From: Candidatus Bruticola sp.
Lineage (GTDB): Bacteria; Vulcanimicrobiota; Xenobia; Xenobiales; Xenobiaceae
DNA: 64,000 nucleotides
Direction: 5' to 3'
NCBI GenBank assembly: GCA_051874695.1
Contig: JBJEGC010000022.1
Span: 5,895 to 69,894 of the forward strand
Shown here: in pieces, positions 22,121 to 43,369 of the stretch
Numbering within the stretch: position 1 is the stretch's first letter
Layout of the letters: each line of letters begins with the position of its first letter
The notes under the pieces: generated by a model
Databases searched by the model: none
Told to the model about the DNA's origin: nothing
What the model saw: only the letters and a program-made list of their open reading frames with translations
Position numbers and translations under genes: made by a program

Positions 22121-22168
22121 TTTACGCTTTGCTGTTTAGCTGGTTTTCAGCTGATATAGCTTAAGCAA

Positions 22169-22210
22169 AAGAAGGGATTATGCTAATGTAATCCCTTCTT
22201 TTTTTTTATT
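22169..22210 (+). terminator. rho-independent terminator after pilA
   Basis: AAGAAGGGATTA-TGCTAATG-TAATCCCTTCTT hairpin plus T9. Confidence 0.7.
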
Positions 22211-22298
22211 TTATTGGTGCCATGCTTTTTTATTGACACCCTTTAAAGTTTGTTTTAACCTTTACAGAATTGCAACTAACCAGGAGCGTACTCTCTTT

Positions 22299-23189: not shown

Positions 23190-23364
23190 ATGAGAGTTGG
23201 CAGGGGTTTTCTTTAGATAATCGAACTGCAGAAACTCTCTATAGGTGTATCTTATTTAGGTTGGGGGGCCCTTGGAGGTTTTTCACGAACTAAGAAGAAA
23301 GACTGCGGTATAGCAACTGGGAGTTAGTGCGCTCTCACGGCTTTTTTGGGAAGAAGGGGTTTGT

Positions 23365-24486: not shown

Positions 24487-24544
24487 GTTTGCAGCGCGGG
24501 CTTGGCGAGCTTAGTCGAGCTGATACTCCAAAGGGAGGTGCACG

Positions 24545-25183: not shown

Positions 25184-25192
25184 GGAGGTACG

Positions 25193-25864: not shown

Positions 25865-25873
25865 AGAAAAAAT

Positions 25874-26638: not shown

Positions 26639-26878
26639 CTCATCTTCTGGATAAAATGTCAGTCTCTTTTGAAAAATTGAAAATAATAAAAAGCACGGCC
26701 AGGCTTTCGAGGGTGTCTGTCCGTTTGCAGGAAGGTCTACCTAATTAAGAAAGGGGCGCACATATTGCTTTGCGCGTGCTTTCCAAATGGTGGATCGCAC
26801 CCTCGGAATGAAACTTATGGTTTCAAGTAATTAAGTTCTTAATTGAACGTGATGGCCAATAGGAGGTGGGTAAAACCA

Positions 26879-28867
26879 ATGCTCTTGTCCAAGCGTAGAA
26901 GCATTCAGCTTCTGTTTGCATGCCTGATGGCCGTGGGACTATTTTTGTCTTCGTCCATGGCAGTGACAGCTCAAGGCAATGCTGCAACTATTAACGGCGT
27001 CAATTACAGCCTAGATAATTCCAAAGGTCTTATCAAGGTAGTAGCTGATACCACTGCACCAGTTCAGTATAAACAGTTGAAGTCTGACAACGCCATATGC
27101 GTTGAAATTTCTCCCGCTGTTGTCGGTAAAAATGTAAAACGCAGCCAGAATATTAATACTGGTTTGCTTCAGAGTATCGTTGTCGCTCAGACTTCTGCTA
27201 ACGTAGTATTAGTTCGCATGAATGTCAGCGGCACTCCCAAGACCAGCTATTGCACCGCTTTGGCGGAGAATAAGGGCGTCTCTGTCGCTTTCTCCAAAAA
27301 CGAAGTTGCTAGTGCGAAAGTAGCGAAAGCACCAGCTGCTGATACTGTAGCTAAAGCCGGAAGCAATGTAGCTCCTCGTAAAGTCGCTGCGCCCGCTAAG
27401 AAGGCCGCTGCTGCTAAGAAGGTTGCTCGCAAGCCCGTTGCCAACAGAGTCAAAGTTGTCAATATGGAATTTGTCAACGCTGACCTCGTTTACATCGTAA
27501 AGTTCCTTGCTAAGGAAATGGGACGTAACGTCTACGTCGGTCCCGATGTACAGGGCTCTGTTACCGTAACTTTGAAGAATGTTCAGCCCGAAGGTGCTTT
27601 GGCTTTGGTTCTGAAAATGCAGGAAACTCCTTATGACTACAAGATCGTTGACAACACCGTAATTGTAGCCACTTCCGAGAAGCTGCAGACCATTGCTGAC
27701 AACATTCTTACTCCCAAAACCAAGTCCAGCTCCGTCAGGAAGAACCTCTCCGAGCAGGAATTCGTTCTTGAAGCTGCTCCCGCCGCTAACATTATTGAGT
27801 TCTTGAAGGGTCAGTACCCCGACGTAGTTTTCACTCCCCATCCCACTATTAACGGTTTCTATGCTAAGGGCACTCAGCAGGAACTCAGAGAGATCAAGAG
27901 CAAGCTCCCTAACCTCGATCAGGTTCCCGCTCCTCCGCCAGCTCCTCGCCGTGAGTACATCACCGTCAACTATGGTAAGGCTGAAGAAATTCAGACCCTC
28001 ATCAAAACCTTGGTTCCTGATATTACTCTTAACTTAGACAAGCGCATGGGCATCCTCGTTGTTGAGGGTACTGATGAGCAGATCGAACAAGTTCAGGAAG
28101 TGTTGGCTAATATTGACAGACCCTTAAAGCAAGTCATGTTAGACTTCAAGGTCGTTGAGCTCAACGAAACCGGTTCTAAGAACTTAGGTGTACAGTGGAG
28201 TGATGACGCCGGTGCTATGGGTGTATTCAACACTACCTTCGCTGAAATCGTTCCTTCCTTATTCTACGGTGCCGATCGTCACATGATCACCAACGAAGAG
28301 TTCGACCTTGGTGAAGACACCAGCGATTTGACCGCTTTCAACCTCGGTACTTTCGGCCGTTCCCCTCTCTTAATTAAAGCTTCTCTCTCCTTCGTGGTAG
28401 AGAACAGCGATTCCAAAACCTTAGCTTCTCCTCGCATTGCTACTCAGAGCGGTGAGAAAGCCGAAGTTTATGTGGGTCAGAGATATCCTATCGTATTCTA
28501 CGATCCTCGTGCCGGTCAGTTCCAGGTTCAGTATGTTGATATCGGTACTAAGTTGGAAGCTACCCCTGAAGTCAAGGATGACGGCCACGTAGTGGTTGAG
28601 CTCACTCCTACCACTTCCAGCGCTGGTAACTTGGTAAACAACCAGTATCCTATTACTTACGAGCGCACTGCTAAGTCCAAAGTCCGCGTCAAAGACGGTG
28701 ACACCATCGTTCTGGGCGGTCTGATCAGTGACAGTGAGAAACACTCTGTCTCCAAGCTCCCTCTCTTAGGCGACCTTCCCGTCATCGGTGCTTTGTTCCG
28801 CTACGAGAGCCACAGCTCAGACAGAAGCGAAGTCGTATTCATGGTCACTCCTCATATCATGGACTAA
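26879..28867 (+). CDS. pilQ: type IV pilus secretin PilQ
   Basis: Signal peptide, N-domains, and a C-terminal secretin domain (...IVLGGLISDSEKHSVSKLPLLGDLPVIGALFRYESHSSDRSEVVFMVTPHIM). AGGAGG lies upstream. Confidence 0.85.
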   Translation: MLLSKRRSIQLLFACLMAVGLFLSSSMAVTAQGNAATINGVNYSLDNSKGLIKVVADTTAPVQYKQLKSDNAICVEISPAVVGKNVKRSQNINTGLLQSIVVAQTSANVVLVRMNVSGTPKTSYCTALAENKGVSVAFSKNEVASAKVAKAPAADTVAKAGSNVAPRKVAAPAKKAAAAKKVARKPVANRVKVVNMEFVNADLVYIVKFLAKEMGRNVYVGPDVQGSVTVTLKNVQPEGALALVLKMQETPYDYKIVDNTVIVATSEKLQTIADNILTPKTKSSSVRKNLSEQEFVLEAAPAANIIEFLKGQYPDVVFTPHPTINGFYAKGTQQELREIKSKLPNLDQVPAPPPAPRREYITVNYGKAEEIQTLIKTLVPDITLNLDKRMGILVVEGTDEQIEQVQEVLANIDRPLKQVMLDFKVVELNETGSKNLGVQWSDDAGAMGVFNTTFAEIVPSLFYGADRHMITNEEFDLGEDTSDLTAFNLGTFGRSPLLIKASLSFVVENSDSKTLASPRIATQSGEKAEVYVGQRYPIVFYDPRAGQFQVQYVDIGTKLEATPEVKDDGHVVVELTPTTSSAGNLVNNQYPITYERTAKSKVRVKDGDTIVLGGLISDSEKHSVSKLPLLGDLPVIGALFRYESHSSDRSEVVFMVTPHIMD

Positions 28868-29393: not shown

Positions 29394-32300
29394 GTGACTT
29401 ACGTGGCTGATACCATTGAAGGGTTGATGCAGGAGGCCCGAGCGTTCGCTGACAGCAGAAGCTGGGACCAAGCCATAGAGAGTTATTCCAGAGTAATAGA
29501 TCTGGATGCTGATAATGATGAGGCTTGCCGAAGCTTGGCTAATATCTACGCTTTGCGTGGAATGTTTAAGTCGGTAATAAGTACCTATCTGCGGTTGATG
29601 CACATCTATGTTGCGCGCAGTGACATGGATAATGCGATGGCTGTGGCTAACTATGTGCTCCTTTTAGAACCGGCGTCCATTGATGTCCGCTCTGAGCTCA
29701 TAAATATGTATCGCTATCGCGGGGATACAGCTGAGGTTGTGTCGCGCTCGCTCGATTTAGCTCGCCTTTATACCGAGTTAGACGAGGGGGATCGCTCTAT
29801 TGAACTTCTTCAGGCCGTCTTAAACGACGATCCGAATAATGCTGACATCTGCCGCGAACTGGCCGAAATGTATATTCAGTACGGTCAAGTAGAGCGCGGT
29901 GCCAGCCAGTATCATCAAGTCGCTGATTTGTATCAGGCGAACGGTCAGCTTGACAAAGCTTGCGATGCTCTAGAGCGAATTCTGGTTGTAAACAGCGGCG
30001 ATTCCGGCGCAGTATTCCATCTGGGAGAACTTTATTCCATGATGGAACGCTGGGAAGATGCCGAAAGGCAGTTCCGCAGCGCTCTTAAATTTGACTTTGA
30101 AAATCTCGATGTCATGTTCGCTTTGGGCAATGTTTGTCAGCGCAAAGGAGACTTGGACCAAGCCAGTTTAGCATATCGTAAGATAGTCATGATTGCTCCC
30201 GACTATGTCTTGGCTCAAGAACGCCTCGGCGAAATTTACCATATGCAGAACAACATAGAGCTGGCCATTAAGGCTTACCTTACGGCTGGTGGTCTCTATG
30301 TACGCAGTAACGACTCTGAACACGCCATAGCGCTTTATCAGCGCGTCATTTTCCTCGATCCCAATAATCCTGCTGCTACCCGTGAACTTACCAACTTGGG
30401 AGCTCCTGTCGTCGGTAACGATGGTGGTATTCAGCCTCTCGTTAAAAATAAGGCTGCAACCAAGTCTTCCCGATCTGAGTCACGCCGCGAGAAGAAAGAT
30501 GGAGAGCGTAAAACTCGCAGCGGTTTGCTTCCTAAGGGAGGCGGTGGTGTGCGCTCTGGTCTGGTTGCCAAAGGTGGCGGCTCCAAGCCTGGTTTAGGCG
30601 GAAAGCCCGTACTTGGTGGCGATGGTGAGGCTGAAGGTGCGCCGCGTCCGGGCTTAATGCGCGCAGGCTTGAAAGCTTCCGGAGGAGGTAAGCCCTCTTT
30701 AGGAGGCAAGCCTATGCTCGGTGGCAAGCGCGTTTTGGGTAGTCGTAAGAAGAAGGCTGAAGAGGCTAAAGAAGAGGCTCCTGTTGAGCATACTGCTATT
30801 AGCTTGGCTAAAGAGCCTGAAAACGATCAGAGTGCTGCTGTAGAAAATGTTGCCGCGAATGATGGTGAAGTTCAGGCCGCCGAAGTTGTAGCTGTAGAGT
30901 CCGGCGTAGATGAAGTAATGCCTACGCCAGAGCATGTTGAATCTTCAGAGTCACAGCCAGAAGTAGGAACCGTAGCTGAGGCCGTTCCAGAAGTAGGAGC
31001 AGCTATACCTGAGTCTGCGGGTGATATTCATTCCGAAATGACTCCGGAGCATAACCCGGAAGCTTTTTCCGCTTCCGAACATCAGGTTCCGCTCGAAGAT
31101 AACATTTACGCCGATGGAAACCAGCAGTATGTCGGGGAAGATCAACAATTCGGCGGTGATATGCAGCAATATGCTGGTGAAGCCCATCAGTTCGGCGGTG
31201 ATATGCAGCAGTATGCCGGTGAGGCTCAGCAGTTCGGCAATGATATGCAGCAATATGCCGGTGAAGTTCAGCAGTTCGGCAGTGATATGCAGCAGTATGC
31301 TGATGATTCTCAACAGTTCGGTGGTGACATGCAGCAGTATGTCGGCGCGGAGCAAGGCCAGGGTCATGAGTATTATCAGGAACCTTATGCTGCCCAAACT
31401 GGAGAATTCTACGGAGAGCATGCCGATGGAACCGGCCATTTTGAGCAGCCTACCGAATCTCACGAAGCTTATTACCAGCAGGAAGGAACTGCGGCTGAAT
31501 ACGGAGAGCAGCACCAGTACGAAGATGCTGCTTACGGTGGGGAAAACTACTCTGATAACGGTTACGGATTCGATATGCACCGTCCGCTTATCATGGTGCC
31601 CGAGGGCGAACTGATTGTACCTGCTCCTATACTTTATTTAGAGCGCACCGATCTGTACGAGGCTATTTGCCAGGCAATCACCGAGGTGCCGGATCCTTCG
31701 GTTATTCCGTGGGAACCTCTGCGTGTTATCGATGAAGCTGCTATAGAAGAGAAGCTGGCTCAACAGAGTGCTGAAGCTGCCAGAGCCGCGGCCGAGGCTG
31801 AGGAAGCTGCCAGAGCTGAGGCTGAGAAAGAACAGGCCGCTTCTAGTTCAGTGGAAGGTTTCGACTTCAGCGGTGGCGTTAACCTCAAAGGGGTTTCCGG
31901 GACTGGACTTCGCCGCAAATATTCTAAAGGTGAGTCTAAAGGCAGCTCGTCTTCAGGACGTTCCCGTCTTAGCGGCAATCAATCGCTTTCAGAGCGTGTG
32001 GCCCGCATGCGTGCGGAGAGCGCTGAACTTGAAGAAAGCGCTTCCGAGCATCGCGCCATTAGTGGTATCAACCGTCATCATCAAGATAAGTCTCAGAAGA
32101 AGGAGAAAGGCCGCTCGATTGTTGGCGGTATCTCCAGACCTATTAACCAAGTTATTGAAGAAGCCAACCAAGCCAACCAAGCCAATGGCACTGCTCCTCA
32201 AACTTATGCCGATCAAGCTCCTGAGATTCCTCGTCCCGAACTCACAGCCACGCGTTCTCGCAGCAGTTTGAGTGAACGTATTAAGAGGGCCAGACAATCG

Positions 32301-35300
32301 AAGGCTGCGGCTAAAGTTCAGGCTGAAGAGGTCAACGCGGAGCTTTCTGCTCAGTCTGTAGAACAGCCTGTTGCTGAATTCGACGGCAATGCTTATCAGG
32401 CTGAGTCTCAAGAAGCGGTCAACACTTCAGCGGCCTCAGCAGAATATGGTGCACCTACTGCTCCGGATGGGCAGTTAAGCGGGGAATATGAAGCTTATCA
32501 AGCTGCCGAGCAGGCGGCAAGTGACCCGTCTGCTTCCGAGCTTGGTCTTGCTCAGGTTGCTGTCGGCGCTGTAGCCATTGGAGCTGTCGCTGCTGCTAGT
32601 TCGGCTGTAGCCGACAATCTCGACGATCTCACTCAGGGCGAATATCCAATTGAATCTGGTGCTGAAGCAGAGCAGCTTGGCGGTCAGTACGGTGCCTATC
32701 CTGAAGCGGAACAGGCTAACGAAGGAGAGCAGCTTGGCGGTCAGTACGGTGCCTATCCCGAGGCTGGGCAGGCTGCCGAAGGAGAGCAGCTTGGCGGTCA
32801 GTACGGTGCCTATCCTGAGGCTGAACATGCTGCCGAAGCAGAGCAGCTTGGCGGTCAGTACGGTGCCTATCCCGAAGCTGAACATGCTGCCGAAGCAGAT
32901 ACTTCCGGCGTTGGTTTAGCCAAAGTTGCCGTAGGTGCTGTGGCCATAGGTGCTGTGGCTGCTGCCAGTTCTACCGTTGCTGACAATTTCAGTGGTGCTG
33001 AATTATATGCCGACACTGCGGCTGAGGAGCTGCTTGGAGAGCAGTATGGCGGGGGTGAAAACGTCGAAGCCGAGCCTGCTGCTGTCGTTGAAGAAGAACA
33101 GTTGGGCGCTCATTATAGCGCTTATCCCGAAGCTGAACCTGCTGCCGAAGCAGATACTTCCGGCGTTGGTTTAGCTAAAGTTGCTGTTGGTGCTGTGGCT
33201 ATAGGTGCTGTAGCTGCGGCTAGTTCTACTGTGGCAGACAATTTCAGTGATGCTGAGTTGTACACTGAGGCTGTGTCTGAGGAGCAGTTTAGCGGTCAGT
33301 ACGAGGCTGAGCCCGTTGAAGCTGAACCTGCAGCCGCTGAAGCTGAACAATTAGATGGAGATTACGGAAACTACGCAGATGCAGTTGAGCAGGCTGTTAA
33401 TTCTGGCGTAGGCTTAGCCAAAGTTGCCGTAGGTGCTGTGGCTATAGGTGCTGTGGCTGCTGCCAGTTCTGCTGTGGCTGATAATTTTGGCGATTTAGAG
33501 CAGTATGCATCCTATCCCGATGCAGATGGTGCTCCTGTGAGTGAACCTGTCGCTCAGATAGAAGATCGTCAATTGAATAAGGCAAATGCGAATCCGTCAA
33601 GAGACGTGGCAGAGGAAGTTCAGTCGGTGGAGACTCCTGTCGCCGTTGCCGATGAACTTGATACTTCTTCTAACGATGACAATGCTCAGGTGGTAGAGCT
33701 CGATGAAGCTGGAGCTTCAATGATTGAATTCGTTGAAGTTGACGACGATCGAACCGATGTTCCTGAGATAGTACTTAACGAGCCCGATGAAGTTGCTACT
33801 CCTACTAAGGTTAAAGTTCCCGTTCGCATAAAACGTAGAAAACGCCGCAGCGCTCCTGTTATCGAGCAAATCGAAGAAGTAGAAGAAATTGAGGCTGATC
33901 TCCCTCAAGGAGACGCTGGTTCGGATGCCTCTTCCGGCGTAGGGTTGGCTAAAGTTGCCGTCGGTGCCGTAGCTATAGGTGCTGTGGCTGCTGCCAGTTC
34001 AATGGTCGCGGATAACTTTGCTGCGAATGCTTCCGAACTTTACCAACAGGATGCTCAGTCTGAGTTTATTGAAGCTGAGAATATTCATGAAGAAAGTGCT
34101 GTAGCTGAAGCTGAACCTGAAGAGGTGCAGCCAGAGCCGGAACCTGAGCCGGTTGGCGATGAGCTTTGCTCGCTTTCTGTAGAATCTGAACTGCCTCCGG
34201 AATACTTAAAGGAAGCTCAGCGTCTGCGTGACAAGTTGGTGGGAGCCGATGTTACTACAGCTATAGGTGATTACCGTCGGGCTATTGAGAATTCTCCCGA
34301 AAACTTAGTGCTGCGTACCGATTTGGCTGATGTTCATTTGCGGTTCAGCTTAATGGATGACGCTATTAATCAGTATCGTCAAATTCTGCGCCGTAAACCC
34401 GACTCTGTGGCTTTGCGCCATCGTTTAGCTTGTGCTCACTTGTGGAACGAAGATTTCGATGAAGCTATAAAAGTGTATCTCGATTTGGCTGAACTGCATA
34501 CTCAAAACGAACAGTATGCTGATGTAATCGATGTTTTGCAAACTGTTCTCAGCCTCGATCCTCAACACTTTAAGGCTCGTCGTCTCCTTATTGATCGCTT
34601 TATCGCTCAGGGTAAAGTCGATTTAGCCACTCATCATCTGCGTCAGTTCGTGGATGCTGCTCTCTCTTTAGGTAGCGTAGATAATGCCATCTTCGCCCTT
34701 AAGCAACTTATAGAACTCTCTGATGATCCTGCTTTCGTAGAGCGTCTGGCTAAAGTTTACGAAGAACATGACAATGTCAGTGAAGCCATCTCCTACTATC
34801 AAATTCTTTCTGAACGCTACAGAAAGGAAGAAAAGTGGAGTGAAGCTTTGGCCGTCTGCAGCAAGTTGGTTGCTTTAGAGCCGGACAATTTTGACGAGCG
34901 CCGCCTGCTGATCAGTCTGTATCAGAATCTGGGCCGTTACGATAAGGCAATGGCTGAACAGTTCCATCTGGCCGGACTTTACAAAGAGCAGAACTCCATG
35001 GATGAGGCTGCTGAACTTTACCAGTCGATTGTAGACAAAGATCCTGGTCACTATGCCGCTCGTCGCTGCTTGGTTGACTGCTACCTGAGTAAGGGCAACC
35101 TGCAGGCTGCTATGATGCAAGTTGCTCCTTTAACCGAGCGTTACAGATCTGAGCGTCTCTTCGAGCAGGCTATTGAAATGTATAGAAGCTTGGTCGAGGC
35201 CGATCCGAGTTCTGTAGATTTGCGTGAAGAGTTGCTGGCCTTCTATACCATGGGAGAACAGCGCGAGAATATGCTCAGTGAGCTGCTCACTCTTAACGAA

Positions 35301-36065
35301 ATTCATGAAAACAAAGGCGAGTACAGAGATTCGGTTCGTTACTTGCGCCGCGCTATCGAGTTGGCGCCGGATCGTGCCGATCTGCACTGCCGTCTGGCTA
35401 AGCTTTATGATGAGCAGTTGCAAAGCATCAGTGGAGCTATGCAGGAATACAGAAAAGTATTCGAGCTCAATCCAGGTGATGCGGAAGCTATGAGCCGCTA
35501 CGCTCAGCTTTTGGTATCCCAGCGCAAGCCCAAAGAAGCTGCAGCCGTCCTGCTTAAATTGCAATCAATTAATAAAGAAGTTGGTAAGCAGGCCATCAAC
35601 ACCATCTGCAAGTCCTTCTTGGACAAGATCGCTCAAGACGGTGCTGATTTAGCTACCAGATATAGCTATGGAGAGCTGTGTTACTACCTCAACCGCATTA
35701 GCGATGCTATCGAGCAGTTCCAGAAGACTCATGCCGACAGAGACTTAGAGCTGCGCTCCCGCAACATGTTAGGTTTGTCCTTTATAAAGATGCCTCGTAT
35801 GCGTGAAATGGCTATCCGTCAGTTCCGCTTAGGTCTTGATACTAAAGGACATGCGGAGCAAGATTACCTCGAGCTGCGCTATAACTTGGCTATGTTGTTC
35901 TACCAGACCGACCGCCTCCAAGAGGCTCTGACCGAATTCAAGAGCATTTTGGCCTTTGACATTACTTACCGCGATGTCGAAGCCAGAGTTAAAGATTTGC
36001 AGGCTAAGATCGCTGCCGGCGGAGGCGCTTCTAAAGGCAGAGGCGTTCCTCCCCGCCGCAAATAG
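29394..36065 (+). CDS. giant (2223 aa) TPR protein with repetitive disordered centre and five repeated hydrophobic segments
   Basis: Single uninterrupted ORF. TPR-like units occupy the N-terminal ~330 aa and the C-terminal ~600 aa. The centre is Gly/Lys-rich, then Gln-rich 14-aa repeats, then acidic EQLGGQYGAYPEA repeats. It holds five copies of GVGLAKVAVGAVAIGAVAAASSxVADNF. Confidence 0.7.
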   Translation: MTYVADTIEGLMQEARAFADSRSWDQAIESYSRVIDLDADNDEACRSLANIYALRGMFKSVISTYLRLMHIYVARSDMDNAMAVANYVLLLEPASIDVRSELINMYRYRGDTAEVVSRSLDLARLYTELDEGDRSIELLQAVLNDDPNNADICRELAEMYIQYGQVERGASQYHQVADLYQANGQLDKACDALERILVVNSGDSGAVFHLGELYSMMERWEDAERQFRSALKFDFENLDVMFALGNVCQRKGDLDQASLAYRKIVMIAPDYVLAQERLGEIYHMQNNIELAIKAYLTAGGLYVRSNDSEHAIALYQRVIFLDPNNPAATRELTNLGAPVVGNDGGIQPLVKNKAATKSSRSESRREKKDGERKTRSGLLPKGGGGVRSGLVAKGGGSKPGLGGKPVLGGDGEAEGAPRPGLMRAGLKASGGGKPSLGGKPMLGGKRVLGSRKKKAEEAKEEAPVEHTAISLAKEPENDQSAAVENVAANDGEVQAAEVVAVESGVDEVMPTPEHVESSESQPEVGTVAEAVPEVGAAIPESAGDIHSEMTPEHNPEAFSASEHQVPLEDNIYADGNQQYVGEDQQFGGDMQQYAGEAHQFGGDMQQYAGEAQQFGNDMQQYAGEVQQFGSDMQQYADDSQQFGGDMQQYVGAEQGQGHEYYQEPYAAQTGEFYGEHADGTGHFEQPTESHEAYYQQEGTAAEYGEQHQYEDAAYGGENYSDNGYGFDMHRPLIMVPEGELIVPAPILYLERTDLYEAICQAITEVPDPSVIPWEPLRVIDEAAIEEKLAQQSAEAARAAAEAEEAARAEAEKEQAASSSVEGFDFSGGVNLKGVSGTGLRRKYSKGESKGSSSSGRSRLSGNQSLSERVARMRAESAELEESASEHRAISGINRHHQDKSQKKEKGRSIVGGISRPINQVIEEANQANQANGTAPQTYADQAPEIPRPELTATRSRSSLSERIKRARQSKAAAKVQAEEVNAELSAQSVEQPVAEFDGNAYQAESQEAVNTSAASAEYGAPTAPDGQLSGEYEAYQAAEQAASDPSASELGLAQVAVGAVAIGAVAAASSAVADNLDDLTQGEYPIESGAEAEQLGGQYGAYPEAEQANEGEQLGGQYGAYPEAGQAAEGEQLGGQYGAYPEAEHAAEAEQLGGQYGAYPEAEHAAEADTSGVGLAKVAVGAVAIGAVAAASSTVADNFSGAELYADTAAEELLGEQYGGGENVEAEPAAVVEEEQLGAHYSAYPEAEPAAEADTSGVGLAKVAVGAVAIGAVAAASSTVADNFSDAELYTEAVSEEQFSGQYEAEPVEAEPAAAEAEQLDGDYGNYADAVEQAVNSGVGLAKVAVGAVAIGAVAAASSAVADNFGDLEQYASYPDADGAPVSEPVAQIEDRQLNKANANPSRDVAEEVQSVETPVAVADELDTSSNDDNAQVVELDEAGASMIEFVEVDDDRTDVPEIVLNEPDEVATPTKVKVPVRIKRRKRRSAPVIEQIEEVEEIEADLPQGDAGSDASSGVGLAKVAVGAVAIGAVAAASSMVADNFAANASELYQQDAQSEFIEAENIHEESAVAEAEPEEVQPEPEPEPVGDELCSLSVESELPPEYLKEAQRLRDKLVGADVTTAIGDYRRAIENSPENLVLRTDLADVHLRFSLMDDAINQYRQILRRKPDSVALRHRLACAHLWNEDFDEAIKVYLDLAELHTQNEQYADVIDVLQTVLSLDPQHFKARRLLIDRFIAQGKVDLATHHLRQFVDAALSLGSVDNAIFALKQLIELSDDPAFVERLAKVYEEHDNVSEAISYYQILSERYRKEEKWSEALAVCSKLVALEPDNFDERRLLISLYQNLGRYDKAMAEQFHLAGLYKEQNSMDEAAELYQSIVDKDPGHYAARRCLVDCYLSKGNLQAAMMQVAPLTERYRSERLFEQAIEMYRSLVEADPSSVDLREELLAFYTMGEQRENMLSELLTLNEIHENKGEYRDSVRYLRRAIELAPDRADLHCRLAKLYDEQLQSISGAMQEYRKVFELNPGDAEAMSRYAQLLVSQRKPKEAAAVLLKLQSINKEVGKQAINTICKSFLDKIAQDGADLATRYSYGELCYYLNRISDAIEQFQKTHADRDLELRSRNMLGLSFIKMPRMREMAIRQFRLGLDTKGHAEQDYLELRYNLAMLFYQTDRLQEALTEFKSILAFDITYRDVEARVKDLQAKIAAGGGASKGRGVPPRRK
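31130..31350 (+). repeat. in-frame tandem repeat, ~7 x 42 bp (DMQQYAGEAQQFGG)
   Basis: Near-identical 42-bp units are visible in the sequence. Confidence 0.8.
32541..34020 (+). repeat. five dispersed copies of an ~80-bp unit encoding the hydrophobic segment GVGLAKVAVGAVAIGAVAAASS(A/T/M)VADNF
   Basis: Copies start near 32541, 32907, 33163, 33406 and 33936. The peptide is conserved, while the DNA differs at many synonymous positions. Confidence 0.8.
32665..32885 (+). repeat. in-frame tandem repeat, 4 x 60 bp (EQLGGQYGAYPEAEQAxEG)
   Basis: Almost identical 60-bp DNA units. Confidence 0.8.
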
Positions 36066-36103
36066 TGGAACTCTTAAGCGCCTTTATTGGAATCGGAGAA
36101 AAA

Positions 36104-39100
36104 ATGACAGATCGTAGCAATATGGAGTCCCTTATTCAGCAAGCCGATGATTTAGTTGGCGCTGGTAATTGGGAAGAGGCCCGAGAAATATATAAGCAAG
36201 TGGTCAGTCAGGACCCTAATAACGTGGAAGTGCGCGAACACGTGCTTGCATCTGCAAAACGAGCATTGGCTTTCCAGGTTATTATCGGCCAGGATATGGC
36301 TCTGGCTGAGCTCTTTGCGGCTAACGGTGAAGCTGAGAAAGCTATCGATAGCTACAAAGATATCCTTAATTTAGAGAAGATGGCTCAAAGTCAGGGTATC
36401 AGTGGTGCCCAGCTGAGTGAAATTCAGAACTTAGTGGCTCAGGTTAAGCCGGAAATTTTCGCTAAAACCGGTACTATTTATCTGAATGAAGGCCGCTACA
36501 TGGAAGCCATTAAGTGGTTGCGGCCCAGTTTAGATTTGGATCCTAGCCGTTGGGATACGCATATGGCTATGGGACGCGCCCTGATGATGGACAACAAGAA
36601 CAAGGAAGCCATTTCCGAGTTCCAAGAAGTTGTTCGTTTGGCCAGTACTGAAGCTGCTAGTGCTTATGAACTGCTGGGTGAGGTCTTCCTGCGTATTGGG
36701 CGCTCTCCGCAGAACACGATCGTTTGGTTCCGTAATGCAGGTGAACTTTTTGTGCAGCGCAATGAGTTTACCGATGCCATTAGAGCTTATGAGCGTATTT
36801 TGCAATTTGAGCCTCGCAACAAAGATATTCTAGTTCGCTTAAGTGACATCTATACCGCCGAAGGCTATACCGAAAAAGCTTGTGCTGCTTACTTTACTCT
36901 GGCTCAAATTTTTGAGGAAGAAGGCTTCTCCGACAAAGTAATGAGTTACTTGGAGAAGACAATTGAGTTCAATCCTGCTGATGATGAAGCCAGAACGAAG
37001 CTGATCGCTATTTATGGCGAAGCCTTGGAAAACGATCCCTCCAATGTTAGTCTCAGAGTTCGCCTCATTGAGAATCTCCTTAAAAAAGGCATGTTTTCTG
37101 AAGCGGCGGAAAATCAGCTCGAACTGGCCAAGATCTATATCGACAAGGGCAGCATAGATGACGCCATCGCCACTTTGCGCAAACTTATCGATATTGAGCC
37201 GGATAATATTGAGGCCCGTCGTTTACTGGGCGATCAGTACCGGCGCAAAGATATGGGTACTGAGGCTTTGTCTGAGTATCAGGAAGTGGTACGCCTGTAT
37301 CAAGAGAACGGCTTTGCCGATGAGGCTATTGAGTTCCAACATCAGCTGGTCGAGATGTTCCCCGAAACTTCGGATTTGCGCTATCAAGTTGCTTTGTCTC
37401 TGCGCAGTCAAGGCAACCATGAGGGGGCTGTCAGAGAGTTGGACCGTCTGGTACGCAGCAATCCCGATGACATGATTGCCATGAACTATCTGGCTGAGGA
37501 GTATGCGGCTTTAGGCCATTGGGATAAGGCCATAGGGGCTTACCATGAGATACTTAATCATGATCCTGCCCGCTACGATGTGCGCAAGCGTTTAATTAAG
37601 TATTACGTTGAGCAGAGCTTTTATGAAGAGGCTATGGCGGAGATTCGTTTACTGCCTGATGACGACTTTGAAAAGAGAGCTTTTGCTTACAAGATCATTG
37701 AGCGCTGTTTGGAAGAAAACCGCACCGACGAAGCTGAAGCTTATATTCATGGTCTTGAGCCGGATGACGAACGTCTGGTTTCGTTCCACAAAGAGCTGCT
37801 TAAACGTTACCTCGATTTAGGAGAGCTTGTTCAGGCTGACAGGGTTGTAACTTTAATTCCTCGTTCTGATAAAGAACGTAATAAGTTGATTACTCGCCTG
37901 ATGGAGTTGTATCTTGGCGCCTCCAATATGGAAAGTGCAGTAGCGTTGATCGATCGTTTGCCTGACGACGATTCCCTGCGCCTTTCTTTTCAGCGTCGCC
38001 TGATTAATTCTTATCAAGAGATGGGACGCTTTGAAGATGCGGCTACTGAAATGGCGAAGCTTCCTCCCGGCGATGAGTCTTATCACGATTTCTCCATGCG
38101 TCAGATCTCCGGTCTTATGCAGTCTGGCAGACTCAACGATGCCATGAACTGCATCAAAGAGCTCAGTGAAGACGACCCTGCCCGCAACTCCTTTATGGGG
38201 CAGCTTATAGAAGCTTATTTGCAGGATGGCAATATCGATAAAGCTGCTCAGGAAGTGGCCGGTCTCCCTCCGAAGACTGAAGTTTGTTCCAGATATATGC
38301 GCCGCATTATTCAGGCCTATTTGAATAATAACCGTTTTGAAGAAGCTGAGCGCGATATTATGCTTCTCGATTCTAACGATCCTGAGAAGCTGTCGTTCTT
38401 GCGTATTTTGCTCCAAAAGTACGAAATTAACGGTTTAGTAGATAACCTTAGAGAGCTTGTGGTTAAGTTGCCTGACGGCATGCCTGAAAAGCAGCAGTAT
38501 CTGGACGGTATAGTGCATTCTTTCTTGACTGCCGGCAATATGGCGAAGGCGCGACAAGAAATTTACAGTTTAGCCGAGACTGTGTCGGAAAAAGGCAATC
38601 ACTTAGAAGCGGAGCGTCTCTATTCCGATCTTTTGGCTTACCATCCCGTCGATGTAGAAATCAGGATGCGGTTGTGCCAAGAAGTGGCTGCTCAAGGTAA
38701 GTTAGAGCGTGCTTCTGAAGGATTGTTGGTGTTGGCCGGACGTTTCCGTAAAGAGGGCAATGCTACATCGGCGGTAGACATTTATACTCGTCTTTTAGAA
38801 ATTGATCCGGGTAATCTCAATGCTCGCTACCGTTTGGGTGAAATTTGGGCTCAACATGGCCAGACTGCTCAGGCTTTAGAGCATTTCTCTTTCCTGGCTA
38901 GTGAGTATTTGCGGCAGAACTTGAATGAGGTCGCTCAAAAAGTTTTGCATCGCATTCTCGATTTGGACAGTAAGGACATTGTTCACCGCCGTCAGCTTAT
39001 CACTTTGTTGGCCAGAAACATGCGTCTGGAAGAAGCCATAGAAAATTATCGGGTTCTTTTGGGCATACATCTGGACAGGGGAGAGCTCGAAGAAGCTTTG

Positions 39101-40519
39101 ACTTGCGTGCGTGAAGTCAAGCTGCTGCAGCCTTTGAATTTGGAGCTCAGCCAGTGTTTGGGCGCTATGTTCCTGAAGGCCGGTTACTTAGAAGAAGGAC
39201 AGCAACTGCTGGAAGAGCTCATTCCTGCTTACAAAGGGCGCTCCGATCATGAAAACGTGGTTAAAGTGTTCCGAACCCTTTCTGAAGCCTTCGATGCTAA
39301 TCAGCAATGGGAAGCTGCTTTGGAGTATTTGGAGCGTGTTGGTGACGAACAGGTTGAGGCTGATGAGTGGAGGGAAGCTCAATCCAACTATTTGAAGGCC
39401 TTGGAAGAGTACTTGCGCCGTGGACGTCGAGAGTACACGGATACTCTCTTTGTTAAGTTGATTGACGGTTTCTTCCGTCATAAGAACGTCAATGAGGGTG
39501 TAGAGCTGCTGAAGGAAGTTGAGGAGCGTTTCGTTAGGGCGGGTCGAACCGATTTAGCTCTGATCGTAAAAGATCGCCTGGCTTCTATCATGGAGCGGCT
39601 TGAAGAATGGAGCGAAGCTCTCGATGTGGTCATTCTGATTGCTGATACCAACTTGGAGCTGGGGGATGTCGAGCAGGGTATTGCTTACTATCGTCGCGGC
39701 GTCGATTTGGCTGTCAATCATGATATGACCGAGCGCGGCGTTGAGCTGGCTTTCAAAATGGCCGACTTACTCATTAACTATCGGGGCATTGAGGCAGCTC
39801 GTCCGATTTTCGATGAGGTCAGGGTTTACGATAACCAGTCTCCGGAAACCATTGAGCGCATTGCCGATATTATGTTTGAGCGTGGTTACCGCGGTGAAGC
39901 TTGCCCTATCTACAAGGAAGTTTTGGAGTTAGAACCTGGACGCGCTCAGTCTCTTTCCCGCGTGTCTATTATTTACGCCTTAGAAGGTAAACTGGAAGAA
40001 GCGGCCGGCTTGGCTCGTCAGATATTCGCGAAGGGACTCGTTGGCAAAATCACTGAGGAATACGGCAAAGCTCTTTGCTGCAAGCCAAACGATGCCGTTT
40101 ACCACATTAAAATGGGCGAATTCTTTAGGCAGCTTGGTTTCTTGGAAGAAGCTATCGATGAGTTCCATAAAGCTATTACCGATCCGGCTAAGGTTTTGGT
40201 CGCAGTTAATGGTTTAGCTATGGCCTTCCAAGAAAAGGGCTACCGTGACTTAGCTATTAAACAGCTGCAGAAAACCATGGAACAGCCTGGTTTCAGCGAT
40301 GAAGAACTCCTCGATCTGCGCTATAATTTAGCTATTATTCTCCAGGCTGAAGGCCGCTACGATGACGCCATTCAGGCTTTCCAAGAGTGCTACGCCGTAG
40401 ATATTAAGTACCGTGATGTATCTGAGCGCTTGAGTGAACTCTTTGAAAAGGTTGGAGACGGAGTGCCAGGTGAGGGCAGTGGTTACGATGATTACTACTA
40501 TTTCGAAGGAGAGGAGTAG
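36104..40519 (+). CDS. giant all-TPR protein (ORF-track length 1484 aa; ~1471 aa from ATG 36104)
   Basis: TPR-like 34-aa units run throughout, with no TM segment. The ATG at 36104 has GGAG 5 nt upstream. The ORF-track start (GTG 36065) overlaps the upstream stop, so the two genes are translationally coupled or co-transcribed. Confidence 0.7.
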   Translation: MTDRSNMESLIQQADDLVGAGNWEEAREIYKQVVSQDPNNVEVREHVLASAKRALAFQVIIGQDMALAELFAANGEAEKAIDSYKDILNLEKMAQSQGISGAQLSEIQNLVAQVKPEIFAKTGTIYLNEGRYMEAIKWLRPSLDLDPSRWDTHMAMGRALMMDNKNKEAISEFQEVVRLASTEAASAYELLGEVFLRIGRSPQNTIVWFRNAGELFVQRNEFTDAIRAYERILQFEPRNKDILVRLSDIYTAEGYTEKACAAYFTLAQIFEEEGFSDKVMSYLEKTIEFNPADDEARTKLIAIYGEALENDPSNVSLRVRLIENLLKKGMFSEAAENQLELAKIYIDKGSIDDAIATLRKLIDIEPDNIEARRLLGDQYRRKDMGTEALSEYQEVVRLYQENGFADEAIEFQHQLVEMFPETSDLRYQVALSLRSQGNHEGAVRELDRLVRSNPDDMIAMNYLAEEYAALGHWDKAIGAYHEILNHDPARYDVRKRLIKYYVEQSFYEEAMAEIRLLPDDDFEKRAFAYKIIERCLEENRTDEAEAYIHGLEPDDERLVSFHKELLKRYLDLGELVQADRVVTLIPRSDKERNKLITRLMELYLGASNMESAVALIDRLPDDDSLRLSFQRRLINSYQEMGRFEDAATEMAKLPPGDESYHDFSMRQISGLMQSGRLNDAMNCIKELSEDDPARNSFMGQLIEAYLQDGNIDKAAQEVAGLPPKTEVCSRYMRRIIQAYLNNNRFEEAERDIMLLDSNDPEKLSFLRILLQKYEINGLVDNLRELVVKLPDGMPEKQQYLDGIVHSFLTAGNMAKARQEIYSLAETVSEKGNHLEAERLYSDLLAYHPVDVEIRMRLCQEVAAQGKLERASEGLLVLAGRFRKEGNATSAVDIYTRLLEIDPGNLNARYRLGEIWAQHGQTAQALEHFSFLASEYLRQNLNEVAQKVLHRILDLDSKDIVHRRQLITLLARNMRLEEAIENYRVLLGIHLDRGELEEALTCVREVKLLQPLNLELSQCLGAMFLKAGYLEEGQQLLEELIPAYKGRSDHENVVKVFRTLSEAFDANQQWEAALEYLERVGDEQVEADEWREAQSNYLKALEEYLRRGRREYTDTLFVKLIDGFFRHKNVNEGVELLKEVEERFVRAGRTDLALIVKDRLASIMERLEEWSEALDVVILIADTNLELGDVEQGIAYYRRGVDLAVNHDMTERGVELAFKMADLLINYRGIEAARPIFDEVRVYDNQSPETIERIADIMFERGYRGEACPIYKEVLELEPGRAQSLSRVSIIYALEGKLEEAAGLARQIFAKGLVGKITEEYGKALCCKPNDAVYHIKMGEFFRQLGFLEEAIDEFHKAITDPAKVLVAVNGLAMAFQEKGYRDLAIKQLQKTMEQPGFSDEELLDLRYNLAIILQAEGRYDDAIQAFQECYAVDIKYRDVSERLSELFEKVGDGVPGEGSGYDDYYYFEGEE

Positions 40520-40532
40520 GGCTGAGTTTTAC

Positions 40533-41984
40533 ATGAATTGCTCTGTTACTCCATATCGGAAGGTTTTGCGCAGAAGCGTAATTGCTGCCGGTGCAGCGAT
40601 GGCTCTCTTCTGCCTTTCCTGCAGAGCATGGGCCCAGGAAGTCGGCGGCGAAGCTGCTGCTGGTGAGGGCGGGCTCGTGCAAACTTTAGCTTCTCATATG
40701 CAGGTGCTACAGATAGTCTGCGGAGTGTCTGCAGCCATTTTTGTAGTCTGTCTGTGCTGGGAAGTTTGGGTCTCCATTCAGCTGCATCAGAATGGAGGTG
40801 TGCTTCCTGAACCTGAGCCGCAGGAAGAAGAGCCTGAACCTGAAAAGCCTTCCCGCTTTGAGGCTCCTGTGCTGGACGAAACAGAAGATCCGTTTAAGGC
40901 GCTGTTAAATAAGGCCAGCTCGTCTGAGGATGCTAATAAAAATGAGGGAGGAAGTAAGAAGAGTTCTGGGTCTTCCTCTGCTTCTGCACCTTCGTCTTCC
41001 GATTCTGCTGAATCGGGGAGCGGTTTCTCCGGCAGTAAGAAATTTGAACCTTACAAAAATGTCGAACCTATTAAGAGTGGCGATCGTATAACTCGCCGTG
41101 AGCAGGATAATCCGTCTTTTGATGGCGATGCGACTATCGCTGTTGGAGCGGGGTTAGTTCCTCCTAAGGTCGGTGGTTTTGGCGTAGGTACTGGCGGAGC
41201 TGTTGGATTTGGCACTCCTCCTAAACCACCCGCACAGCCTGCTGCTGTCGGATTTGGAGCTCCTTCCAAGCAACATAGTATAGGTTTTGCTCCGCCGAAG
41301 TCTCCCGCCTCCGGTTCGACTGGCTTTGCTCCGCCGAAGCCTCCCGTTTCTGGTCAGGCCGGTTTTGCTCCGCCGAAGTCTCCCGTTTCTGGTCCGGTAG
41401 GCTTTGCTCCGCCGAAGTCTCCCGTTTCCGGTCCGGCCGGTTTTGCTCCGCCGAAGTCTCCCGTTTCTGGTCCGGTAGGTTTTGCTCCGCCGAAGTCTCC
41501 TGTTTCCGGCCCTGTAGGCTTTGCTCCGCCGAAGCCTCCCGTTTCCGGCCCGGCCGGTTTTGCTCCGCCGAAGCCTCCCGTTTCCGGCCCGGCCGGTTTT
41601 GCTCCGCCGAAGTCTCCTGTTTCCGGCCCAGCCGGTTTTGCTCCGCCGAAGTCTCCTGTTTCTGGCCCAGCCGGTTTTGCTCCGCCGAAGTCTCCTGTTT
41701 CTGGCCCAGCCGGTTTTGCTCCGCCTAAACACGGAGGTTTAGGCGTTGGTCCGGGAGCATCCTCAAGTCGTTCTGCTGCGGTTCCTACCAATGTGGGAGC
41801 GGCTCGTCCGACAGTTCCTTTGGGGGCAGCCAGGAGCGCTGCCGGTTCTGCTGACGCCGCTAAAACAGGAGATTCTTGGAAAGCTTTAGCCAGCGGTATG
41901 GAGAATAAAGGTATGGCTCACGGAGCGCCCCGAAGCCAATCTTTAGATATTAAGCGCAGTGGTTTCCCCCCTGCTAACCCTTAA
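40533..41984 (+). CDS. signal-peptide/TM protein with 12 tandem 13-aa proline-rich repeats (GFAPPKSPVSGPA)
   Basis: The ATG at 40533 gives MNCSVTPYRKVLRRSVIAAGAAMALFCLSCRAWA/QE (signal peptide). A second hydrophobic helix follows (VLQIVCGVSAAIFVVCLCWEVWV). Then come an acidic/Ser-rich region, the repeat array, and a Gly/Ala-rich C-terminus. Confidence 0.6.
   Translation: MNCSVTPYRKVLRRSVIAAGAAMALFCLSCRAWAQEVGGEAAAGEGGLVQTLASHMQVLQIVCGVSAAIFVVCLCWEVWVSIQLHQNGGVLPEPEPQEEEPEPEKPSRFEAPVLDETEDPFKALLNKASSSEDANKNEGGSKKSSGSSSASAPSSSDSAESGSGFSGSKKFEPYKNVEPIKSGDRITRREQDNPSFDGDATIAVGAGLVPPKVGGFGVGTGGAVGFGTPPKPPAQPAAVGFGAPSKQHSIGFAPPKSPASGSTGFAPPKPPVSGQAGFAPPKSPVSGPVGFAPPKSPVSGPAGFAPPKSPVSGPVGFAPPKSPVSGPVGFAPPKPPVSGPAGFAPPKPPVSGPAGFAPPKSPVSGPAGFAPPKSPVSGPAGFAPPKSPVSGPAGFAPPKHGGLGVGPGASSSRSAAVPTNVGAARPTVPLGAARSAAGSADAAKTGDSWKALASGMENKGMAHGAPRSQSLDIKRSGFPPANP
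41283..41735 (+). repeat. tandem 39-bp repeat x12 encoding GFAPPK(S/P)PVSGP(A/V)
   Basis: Directly visible in the sequence. Units differ at a few synonymous and A/V sites. Confidence 0.85.
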
Positions 41985-42013: not shown

Positions 42014-42907
42014 TTGTATATCCCTAAAGGCAACATATTAATCGAAGACGTAGAGTTGTCGTATGACAATATGCGCGAAATGCAGGCTAACTTATCCAAT
42101 GACGGCTTCACCGGCTATGTCAAGTTAGACTTAGAAAATTCTTCTGCTTATGTTTTTTATGATAATGGCACTGTGGTCCAGGTTTTAGAGGTTGATAACG
42201 CAACTAGTCTGGTTAGTTTGCAATTGGAACAGCGCCTTCTTAATCGTATTAAGCTCGACAACATAAAATGCTCTAGCTACGTGACTTCTAAGCGTATTGT
42301 CAACGTACTGACAGGTATTTTTGCCTTCCAACCTCTTTATCTTGATTATGAAGCCAAAAAGCGTGATATGCCTCGCATTTTGGAAAAACTCCAAGATGGA
42401 GGTTACAGTGGTCTAATGAAGCTGTCTACTCGTGAGGGTACCTATTATTTGGCAATCGATAATGGCGATATTGTGCGCGATCGTTTTTGCTACAACTATG
42501 GGGAAGTTCTCAGTGGTACCGAGGCTATCGATCGCATACTCAATTTTGAGTTCGATAGCGAAGGAGCCACTATGAGCATCTTTGCTGAGCGCGTTGAAGA
42601 GATCGACATTAAGCGCAGTGCTAAAGAAGAGGAACTTGAGAAGATCAAGACTCTGATTGTCAAATCTGATGGCGGTTTCCTGCGGGCTAACGATGTTGTC
42701 AAAGTTGATAACTATATTGTGCGCGAGTGGAATATCGCCGATATTAAGTCTACTTTCTCTGTCGAGATTGAAACTCCGGACGGCTCTCTCTATGAATACA
42801 GATGTCAGGCCGGTTCTAAGTTCGGCGATCGTGCCGGTTTAACGCCTGCCATGATGAAGAAGATGGGATTAGCTGAAGGAGATAATATCTCTATTCGTCC
42901 TCTGTAA
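42014..42907 (+). CDS. protein with two DUF4388-like domains
   Basis: Two segments fit the DUF4388 pattern G.L....L..L......G.L.L......YF.DG.IV. They are GNILIEDVEL...DGFTGYVKLDLENSSAYVFYDNGTVV and ILEKLQDGGYSGLMKLSTREGTYYLAIDNGDIV. The TTG start has GGAGG 8 nt upstream. The domain call relies on recalled family patterns. Confidence 0.45.
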   Translation: MYIPKGNILIEDVELSYDNMREMQANLSNDGFTGYVKLDLENSSAYVFYDNGTVVQVLEVDNATSLVSLQLEQRLLNRIKLDNIKCSSYVTSKRIVNVLTGIFAFQPLYLDYEAKKRDMPRILEKLQDGGYSGLMKLSTREGTYYLAIDNGDIVRDRFCYNYGEVLSGTEAIDRILNFEFDSEGATMSIFAERVEEIDIKRSAKEEELEKIKTLIVKSDGGFLRANDVVKVDNYIVREWNIADIKSTFSVEIETPDGSLYEYRCQAGSKFGDRAGLTPAMMKKMGLAEGDNISIRPL

Positions 42908-43009
42908 ACTTAATGATGCCGGTGCCTCTCTCTATGAAATTTTTTCTGATTAGGGAGGCCCCCGGCTTCTGGCTCCATGAAATAATAGGTGTTTGGAAGG
43001 AGAGAGAGC

Positions 43010-43369
43010 ATGTCTCAACTGACATCTCTGCTGCAAAGTTTTCAGCGTTTAGATGGGGTTCTGGGCGCTTGTATTCTGAGCAAAGATTGTGAAATATTGG
43101 CGGAAAATTTAAACGATTCGGTCAAAAATGATGTCGCAGCCGTTTCTTTTAAGGAGTTCTTGCCTAAAGTAGAAGCTCTCGTGTCCGGATTGGGCGTTGC
43201 CGGGGTTGACAGGCATCATCTGATTCTCGATGATAAACAGCTTATGATAGAAGTTTTAGTCGGCGGGGCTATGCTGGTTGTTTTTACCAGCAGCGACAAC
43301 AGCAATCAAGGGCGCGTGCGCTTAGAGATTCGCAAGAGCAAAAAGAATATAGAAGCAGCTTTGGCTTAG
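43010..43369 (+). CDS. Roadblock/LC7 (MglB-like) domain protein
   Basis: About 119 aa with the roadblock pattern LDGVLGACILSKDCEILAENL...AAVSF...LGVAGVDRHHLILDDKQLMIEVLVGGAMLVVFTSSDNSNQGRVRLEIRK. AGGAG lies 7 nt upstream. Confidence 0.6.
   Translation: MSQLTSLLQSFQRLDGVLGACILSKDCEILAENLNDSVKNDVAAVSFKEFLPKVEALVSGLGVAGVDRHHLILDDKQLMIEVLVGGAMLVVFTSSDNSNQGRVRLEIRKSKKNIEAALA

Follow-up and report, generated by a model that had tools for sequence, protein, structure and literature searches.

What does a membrane protein built around proline-rich repeats do when its gene stands among the neighbours of a type IV pilus operon? The question was raised by a stretch of 64,000 nucleotides from Candidatus Bruticola sp. 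(contig JBJEGC010000022.1, positions 5,895 to 69,894 of the forward strand; hereafter the window), in which such a gene lies between a gene for a large tetratricopeptide repeat (TPR) protein and genes for a PATAN protein and a Roadblock protein. From comparisons across its family, we propose that the product acts as a membrane-anchored, intrinsically disordered, multivalent docking tail, and we put the probability of this reading at about one half. The protein would be a bitopic inner-membrane protein, with its signal peptide removed or kept as part of a hairpin, about 25 residues in the periplasm, one conserved helix across the membrane and about 400 disordered residues in the cytoplasm. This tail would keep four cytoplasmic proteins, two acidic TPR giants, the PATAN protein and the Roadblock protein, at the inner membrane and close to the type IV pilus machine. 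Its docking elements would be two N-capped amphipathic helices, EDPFKALLNKA and GDSWKALASGME, together with an FDGxATxxVG motif and a C-terminal LDIKR motif; in the clade of the window protein, a locally amplified G-F-A-P-P-K-x-P array would stand in for the extra helix motifs of distant relatives. That the tail binds these partners, or affects how pili are assembled or polarised, we infer indirectly.

The protein has 483 residues and is encoded from an ATG at 40533 on the forward strand. Its parts, with the basis of each assignment, are as follows.

40533..41984, + strand: coding sequence of the membrane-anchored repeat protein (start from homologue N-termini)
40533..40634, + strand: signal peptide, residues 1-34, not of the lipobox type (AWAQ/AYAQ/ALAQ conserved in the family)
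40635..40703, + strand: putative short periplasmic stub, residues 35-57, with L52 and H55 conserved (invariant columns; predicted topology)
40704..40781, + strand: transmembrane stop-transfer helix, residues ~58-83 (hydropathy, AlphaFold helix 48-86, conservation)
40782..40883, + strand: acidic Pro/Glu juxtamembrane stretch, residues 84-117, NGGVLPEPEPQEEEPEPE... (composition)
40884..40916, + strand: helix motif 1, EDPFKALLNKA, residues 118-128 (invariant columns; AlphaFold helix 120-128)
40917..41042, + strand: Ser-rich low-complexity linker, residues 129-170 (40% Ser)
41115..41147, + strand: SFDGDATIAVG motif (FDGxATxxVG), residues 195-205 (conservation)
41148..41282, + strand: degenerate GFG/PPK lead-in units, residues 206-250 (sequence)
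41283..41729, + strand: tandem array of 12 GFAPPK motifs at 13-residue (39-nt) spacing, residues 251-399 (Tandem Repeats Finder and protein motifs)
41868..41903, + strand: helix motif 2, GDSWKALASGME, residues 446-457, of the same type as motif 1 (conservation; AlphaFold helix 448-453)
41940..41972, + strand: C-terminal motif SLDIKRSGFPP, residues 470-480 (conservation)

The mechanically called open reading frame (40434..41984) opens at a GTG and overlaps the upstream TPR gene, whose stop lies at 40519. The ATG at 40533 was chosen because the product then starts with MNCSVTPYRK..., which aligns with the homologue N-termini (MNYSIAPYR...). This leaves 13 nt between the upstream stop and the ATG, and 29 nt separate the stop of the gene from the next gene. 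The initial annotation, made from the sequence alone, had described a membrane protein with a signal peptide, a second hydrophobic helix, acidic and Ser-rich stretches and a repeat array, and all of these elements were found. Two antisense reading frames, 41154-41732 and 41354-41791, mirror the repeat and are not genes. A lipoprotein N-terminus was also considered and rejected, as CLSC and FCQSC are unfit as a lipobox and the AxA site comes after them.

Database searches revealed a small family. Pfam gave no match to the window protein at E<=1 except a chance one to DUF3262 (E 0.61), NCBIfam gave no match, and no Protein Data Bank chain matched the N-terminal profile of 205 positions. A first homology search returned 22 homologous clusters, none with a Pfam domain and named only 'hypothetical protein'; one was labelled Candidatus Bruticola sp., a genus in class Xenobia of the Vulcanimicrobiota/Eremiobacterota. 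When 1.84 billion cluster representatives were searched exhaustively by HMMER with the N-terminal profile, 16 proteins were identified at E<=1e-3, all from metagenome-assembled genomes (MAGs) of Xenobia/UBP9 (Eremiobacterota). A second round, in which the 16-member N-terminal profile was run against a 5.8-billion-protein index, showed five hits among the matches listed, the 8000 candidates considered being swamped by low-complexity words, and did not extend the family. The family is thus real, very small and lineage-restricted, and it has no annotated domain. Its members share a signal peptide or short N-tail, then a membrane helix that closes with W-E, and a disordered Pro-rich tail containing two to five [DE][DE]P[FW][KRQ]xL[LA] motifs and a C-terminal LD[IL]K[RK]; the gene lies between a TPR gene of about 1470 residues and a 297-residue PATAN gene, with a Roadblock gene following.

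Central to this reading is the side of the membrane on which the tail lies. The signal peptide has an n-region of net charge +4, an A/L-rich h-region at about residues 16-30 and a predicted cleavage site, AWA|QE, after residue 34. The second hydrophobic helix (residues ~56-84) reaches a Kyte-Doolittle value of 2.4, and AlphaFold placed a helix at residues 48-86 with a predicted local distance difference test score (pLDDT) of 66-86. When the residues within 15 positions of this helix were counted across 22 family members, we found 11 K+R on the N side versus 42 on the C side. Because a signal peptide is followed by a stop-transfer helix and the family as a whole shows this positive-inside pattern, the mature protein would be N-out/C-in with a cytoplasmic tail of about 400 residues, whether the first segment is cleaved or retained as a hairpin. 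The helix itself is highly conserved: among 16 diverse members W76 is invariant and E77 is kept in at least 90%, and within the close clade F70, V71, L74, V80 and Q83 are also invariant. Such conservation is unusual for a mere anchor, which suggests that the Trp-Glu helix has a specific intramembrane partner.

Beyond the helix, the predicted tail consists of low-complexity sequence in which a few short motifs are conserved. The acidic Pro/Glu stretch has a net charge of -8 over residues 84-130, the first 50 cytoplasmic residues have one of -10, and the Ser-rich stretch consists of 40% Ser over residues 131-170. An AlphaFold2 model built from a 10-sequence alignment had a mean pLDDT of 48 and contained only the helices 6-37, 48-86, 120-128 and 448-453. 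The tail is therefore predicted to be intrinsically disordered save for two short helices, which coincide with the [DE][DE]P[FW]KxL[LA] motifs. In the first of these, the residues P120-F121-x-A123-L124-L125 are invariant or nearly so among the 16 diverse members. LDIKR, at residues 471-475 in the window protein, recurs as LDIKR, LDLKK or LDMK in nearly all family members. Motifs of the [FW][KRQ]xLL type occur two to five times per protein versus 0.01-0.06 expected from shuffles, an excess of at least 100-fold in distant members, where they read DDPFKALLNKA, NPFRRLAKIG, GGDWAALLSKV, DDPWKKLLGQ and DDPWKALLGG.

The array was detected by Tandem Repeats Finder as a single element at 41283-41725 with a period of 39 nt, 11.4 copies, 90% matches, 0% indels and a score of 634. 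At the protein level, 12 GFAPPK motifs start at residues 251, 264 and so on to 394, invariably 13 residues apart; they form 11 complete GFAPPK(S/P)P(V/A)SG(P/Q/S)(A/V/T) units, represented by GFAPPKSPVSGPA, and a truncated twelfth, and about three degenerate GFG/PPK units precede them. The pattern [FLVIM]xPPK occurs 13 times in the protein versus 0.14 times expected from shuffles of the same protein. The array as a whole (residues 251-399) has a net charge of +11 and contains 32% Pro and 16% Gly. The twelve perfectly periodic 13-residue repeats of the initial annotation thus held up, with the reservation that the last is incomplete. The DNA identity among units is 77-100%, units 9-11 being mutually 97-100% identical, and the assemblies of relatives are interrupted within the array, by an N-run in locus L006 and by truncation in family members P0016, P0018 and P0034. 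Because the units are nearly identical and related assemblies break inside the array, the count of 12, like copy numbers from short-read assemblies in general, is uncertain and could be an assembly estimate.

To describe what is conserved in the repeat, we profiled the unit over 13 proteins, weighted per protein and numbered from the Phe. Gly at -1 had a frequency of 0.88, Phe at 0 of 0.94, Ala at +1 of 0.83 and Pro at +6 of 0.78, positions +5, +7 and +8 were variable, and PPK at +2 to +4 was fixed in advance by the pattern searched for. The core G-F-A-P-P-K-x-P is held across orthologues of 37-60% identity while the spacer varies. The period is 12 residues in most relatives and 13 in the window protein and P0016, the copy number among relatives ranges from 7 to 12, spacing is irregular in P0021 (8-31 residues), and P0023 has four scattered, non-tandem copies of [FLVIM]xPPK. 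Since the motif is irregular in one relative and non-tandem in another, the FAPPK motif appears to predate its arrangement in tandem, and the array appears to have arisen by local amplification of a short functional motif. Additionally, we compared the array at 41283-41729 with the corresponding regions of P0026-P0033, L017, L020, L022 and L025 and found an inverse relation: members with an array (6-13 FxPPK) carry one or two helix motifs, and array-free members carry three to five. Two other interpretations of the repeat were rejected. Ser-Pro phosphosites are not supported, as the Ser at +5 has a conservation of only 44% and gives way to Pro or Ala; and the terminator-like hairpins within the array (41350-41713, + strand) are a by-product of the 39-nt unit, CCGGCCCGGCCGG followed by TTTT, with a total not above that in shuffles.

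The candidate partners of the tail come from gene order. The neighbourhood of the gene in the window is as follows.

16701..28867, + strand: co-directional type IV pilus genes (domain searches)
from 16701, + strand: pilB (Pfam/NCBIfam)
from 18717, + strand: pilT (Pfam/NCBIfam)
from 20034, + strand: pilC (Pfam/NCBIfam)
from 21578, + strand: pilin (Pfam/NCBIfam)
from 22233, + strand: prepilin peptidase (Pfam/NCBIfam)
23365-25864, + strand: pilM, pilN and pilO (Pfam/NCBIfam)
26843-28867, + strand: pilQ secretin (Pfam/NCBIfam)
29394..36065, + strand: giant TPR protein, 2223 residues, net charge -183, no signal peptide (kept upstream in L001 and L003)
36065..40519, + strand: TPR protein, 1484 residues, true start likely near 36104; the invariant upstream neighbour (domain search, synteny)
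42014..42907, + strand: PATAN (DUF4388) protein, 297 residues; the invariant downstream neighbour (DUF4388)
42989..43369, + strand: Roadblock/LC7 protein, MglB-like fold (Robl_LC7)
43443-45101, + strand: 552-residue protein with TPR and acidic disordered regions (domain search)
45061-47577, + strand: Wzy_C and TPR membrane protein (domain search)

We found the order TPR (~1470 residues), family gene, PATAN (297 residues) and Roadblock (~120 residues) to be kept from 96% down to about 40% PATAN identity. It is present in L001-L005: around the homologues in L001 and L002 (39% and 37% identity), in the closer relative L003, and at the two most distant profile matches, P0029 (E 7e-8) and P0033 (E 8e-4). 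A synteny scan anchored on the PATAN protein, with one genome per GTDB species, gave 20 loci, three of which are truncated at the end of a contig. At all 17 loci with enough upstream DNA we found a gene with the architecture of the family, ending 24-64 nt before the PATAN start. At L006, the closest relative (96% PATAN identity), the gene seems split; the cause is an N-run in the array, and both halves are conserved. We therefore saw no case in which the gene was lost or frameshifted while its neighbours stayed, and the conserved order bears out the suggestion that the gene, the TPR giants and the roadblock gene make up one module. Lineage-labelled loci were assigned to UBP9, Xenobia or Eremiobacterota, save three (L008, L018 and L019) that carry the names Riflebacteria or Burkholderiales, probably because the contigs were mis-binned or mislabelled; some loci come from Hadza gut or goat rumen MAGs. 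A consensus scan against shuffles revealed no intergenic terminator signal above chance, and co-transcription of the gene with its neighbours would be expected.

The domain calls of the two small partners are weak for single sequences and gain from their orthologues: DUF4388 was matched by five of six PATAN orthologues (best E 2.4e-7) and Robl_LC7 by 10 of 12 Roadblock orthologues (best E 1.2e-9). Across the family the PATAN protein keeps 43-93% identity, far more than its neighbours do; its C-terminal ~80 residues (~215-297; VVKVDNYIVREWNI...EGDNISIRPL) are conserved and have no Pfam match, and one orthologue weakly matched the archaeal DUF2226. In Synechocystis, PATAN response regulators reportedly interact with the pilus motor. 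In both TPR giants we read no signal-peptide-like N-terminus, these two being the only neighbours read for one. The middle ~1200 residues of the 2223-residue giant are not TPR; the internal repeats there (residues 584-650 and 1051-1536) comprise DMQQYAGEAQQFG-type units, EQLGGQYGAYPEA in four copies and a hydrophobic 20-mer, GLAKVAVGAVAIGAVAAASS, in five near-identical copies. The 20-mers could be membrane-spanning or membrane-binding in a protein that lacks a signal peptide and has a net charge of -183.

Farther out, the 552-residue protein consists of N-terminal TPRs, an acidic disordered region of about 300 residues (net -54) and a C-terminal domain of about 110 residues. A second Roadblock domain at its C-terminus was considered and found no support (BLASTP against the Roadblock gene, E = 20). 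At distant loci, a receiver-domain response regulator replaces this gene (P0029 and P0033; L004 8289-8660, L005 3213-3581). The conserved block ends with the Wzy_C (O-antigen-ligase-like) protein with C-terminal TPRs, and a second Wzy_C gene is present in L002 (13861-15165); the Wzy_C protein may be a pilin glycosylase, or it may be the membrane partner of the conserved Trp-Glu helix. Within the pilus operon, a 254-residue reading frame at 25874-26638 (+ strand), between pilO and pilQ in the usual place of PilP, had no Pfam or NCBIfam match.

We compared the window protein with known systems and found its proposed mode of working closest to that of ZipA, and also close to that of FimV/HubP; by its sequence features it is a member of neither family. 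ZipA is the membrane tether of FtsZ in the E. coli divisome, and its Pro-rich region links the membrane to a cytoplasmic machine. Like ZipA, the window protein is predicted to have its N-terminus outside, one helix, and the rest in the cytoplasm, where a charged stretch is followed by a Pro-rich flexible region. In contrast, ZipA lacks a signal peptide and has a globular FtsZ-binding domain, ZipA_C, at its C-terminus, whereas the window protein ends in short linear motifs; we found no Pfam hit to ZipA_C, no folded C-terminal domain in the AlphaFold model and no sequence similarity to ZipA. FimV, HubP and TspA have in common with it a signal peptide, one membrane helix, a cytoplasmic region that is large, repetitive and of low complexity, and an association with type IV pili and TPR-type interactions. 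The window protein is likewise predicted to be single-pass with a large low-complexity cytoplasmic region and is pilus-linked, which is a resemblance and not homology. FimV differs in its periplasmic LysM domain, C-terminal FimV motif and acidic cytoplasmic part, whereas the window protein has a predicted periplasmic part of about 25 residues and a basic tail, and it matched neither the LysM nor the FimV models of Pfam and NCBIfam.

The resemblance to TonB is confined to membrane anchoring and a proline-rich segment. In TonB the N-terminus lies inside, the (EP)n(KP)n segment is periplasmic and a TonB_C domain forms the C-terminus; in the window protein the tail would be cytoplasmic with the unit GFAPPKSPVSGPA, TonB_C (PF03544) was not found with Pfam or NCBIfam, and sequence rules do not predict the combination of an inside N-terminus and a periplasmic Pro-rich segment. 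Repeated docking motifs in disordered chains are known from elsewhere: the FPPPP repeats of ActA bind EVH1 domains, and the DPF/DPW repeats of Eps15 and epsin bind the AP-2 appendage. The likeness lies in repeated aromatic-plus-Pro or DP[FW] motifs on a disordered, membrane-associated chain that gains avidity for a folded partner; these systems are, however, directed at eukaryotic partners, and their motifs differ from G-F-A-P-P-K-x-P and [DE][DE]P[FW]KxLL. No EVH1, GYF, SH3 or appendage-like reader domain was identified at the window locus.

The composition of the module recalls the RomR/MglA/MglB/SgmX network of Myxococcus, in which a large TPR protein, a Roadblock protein, PATAN proteins and a Pro-rich protein likewise occur beside a pilus machine (PMC11580455; PMC4316618). 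There, SgmX, itself a TPR protein, acts downstream of MglA/MglB to recruit PilB to the base of the pilus, and its candidate partners include PATAN proteins (PMC11580455). Genes for PATAN proteins are known to be clustered with those for MglB (Roadblock) and MglA (PMC4316618, citing Makarova et al. 2006). RomR itself is a soluble protein in which a receiver domain at the N-terminus is followed by Pro-rich and Glu-rich regions, whereas the window protein is membrane-anchored and gave no Pfam hit to Response_reg. The idea of a FimV/RomR-type localising element is thus plausible by analogy, but the signature domains of TonB, FimV and RomR are all absent. A membrane-anchored disordered tether with short linear motifs is of a known kind; the family, its motifs and the module are new.

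Several observations weigh against the docking tail. The window protein has His/Gln and then acidic residues after the helix, not Lys/Arg, so for this protein the topology is argued from the signal peptide and from homology. With 10 sequences in the alignment, the low pLDDT speaks only weakly for disorder. Distant members do without the FAPPK array, so the core role of the family does not require it and it could be a mere spacer. The tail charge is not conserved, the tails of P0032, L017, L022 and L025 being acidic. The link to the pilus is one of gene order, the docking partners are candidates, and the window reading frames scanned yielded no MglA-like GTPase.

The explanation that survives best beside the docking tail is a passive tether, which we consider unlikely though not far-fetched. 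Here the Pro-rich array would have no binding specificity and would be an extended entropic linker, comparable to the ZipA P/Q domain or the C-terminal linker of FtsZ, and it would set the reach from the membrane helix to the binding C-terminal motifs SWKALA and LDIKR. The drift in copy number (7-12) and period (12 or 13 residues) among close relatives is as such a linker would have it, as are the unstructured array in the AlphaFold model and the near-identical DNA units, which point to recent slippage or duplication. Moreover, distant members substitute unrelated sequence: L025 has poly-Pro in place of the array, and P0029 has amplified a different 13-residue unit, GGARQPGMPGAMP x7, at the equivalent place, which keeps the pure-spacer reading alive. 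Nevertheless, the G-F-A-P-P-K-x-P core is held in 37-60% identical orthologues while the spacer is not, it recurs non-tandemly in P0023 and at uneven spacing in P0021, which is unexpected of a pure spacer, and the inverse relation between array copies and helix motifs suggests functional substitution.

A somewhat less probable alternative is an electrostatic or condensate scaffold, a polycationic sticker-spacer chain with regular Phe and Lys that would adsorb to the anionic inner leaflet or form a coacervate with the acidic TPR giants and the 552-residue protein at the pilus base. The charges fit: the array carries one Lys and one Phe per 13 residues, the tail of the window clade has +3 to +4 per 50 residues, and the neighbours have net charges of -183, -90 and -54 with long acidic disordered stretches. 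The early units also resemble GFG repeats. However, a role based on charge sits poorly with the acidic tails of the four members named above, and the protein lacks the aromatic-rich or RGG-type composition of known bacterial condensate scaffolds. A bolder version of the docking tail, which we regard as improbable, is a new pilus-organising assembly in which G-F-A-P-P-K 'stickers' and DP[FW]KxLL helices capture the TPR, PATAN and Roadblock proteins, possibly as a condensate. If this were true, a membrane-tethered cluster would position or switch the pilus motor, and the lineage would have an independent solution to pilus polarity, no MglA-type GTPase having so far been found beside the module in this phylum.

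Neutral low-complexity expansion is more doubtful still. In this account only the membrane helix and the first helix motif would be under selection, and the twelve repeats would in part be an artefact of assembly; the broken or gapped arrays of several assemblies and the 97-100% DNA identity of the last units are compatible with it. Yet no indel interrupts the intact frame over 443 nt, all members of the gut/rumen clade have an array with the C-terminal motifs in frame behind it, and the core motif is kept at the protein level, the codon differences between units amounting to 21 nt synonymous versus 15 nt non-synonymous.

Least probable by far is the TonB-like, envelope-spanning polyproline rod of the initial annotation, with the array crossing the periplasm to the secretin or the outer membrane: the 32% Pro, the position downstream of pilQ and pilMNO and an outer membrane that the secretin implies would suit it, but the signal peptide, the second helix and the K+R count of 11 versus 42 put the residues beyond ~84 inside, no TonB_C, LysM or other periplasmic domain was found with Pfam or NCBIfam, the proteins to be connected look cytoplasmic, and an array with 16% Gly, pLDDT below 50, variable spacing, a period of 12 or 13, a copy number of 7 to 12 and no counterpart in distant members argues against a rigid rod or ruler of fixed length. 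The result corrects a tempting mis-annotation: a Pro-rich segment beside a secretin need not mean a periplasm-spanning rod.

Xenobia/UBP9 are uncultured bacteria of gut, rumen and bioreactors without experimental cell biology, and in the literature on Xenobia, UBP9 and Bruticola no title or abstract among the matches listed dealt with pili or with a TPR-PATAN-Roadblock module. The gene block is uncharacterised, conserved and attached to the type IV pilus operon of this uncultured lineage. Binding by the conserved peptide motifs DPFKALL, SWKAL, FDGxAT, LDIKR and GFAPPKxP is testable in vitro without culturing, and the defined tail peptides EDPFKALLNKA, GDSWKALASGME, GFAPPKSPVSGPA and SQSLDIKRSGFPP are suited to such work. 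The family also offers a natural series for the tuning of motif number and type in a disordered scaffold, from array-rich members with few helices to array-free members with many. Finally, the gene encodes the only dedicated membrane anchor in the conserved TPR-PATAN-Roadblock block that follows the complete type IV pilus operon, and as the sole anchor it provides a handle for asking how the block attaches to the pilus machine.

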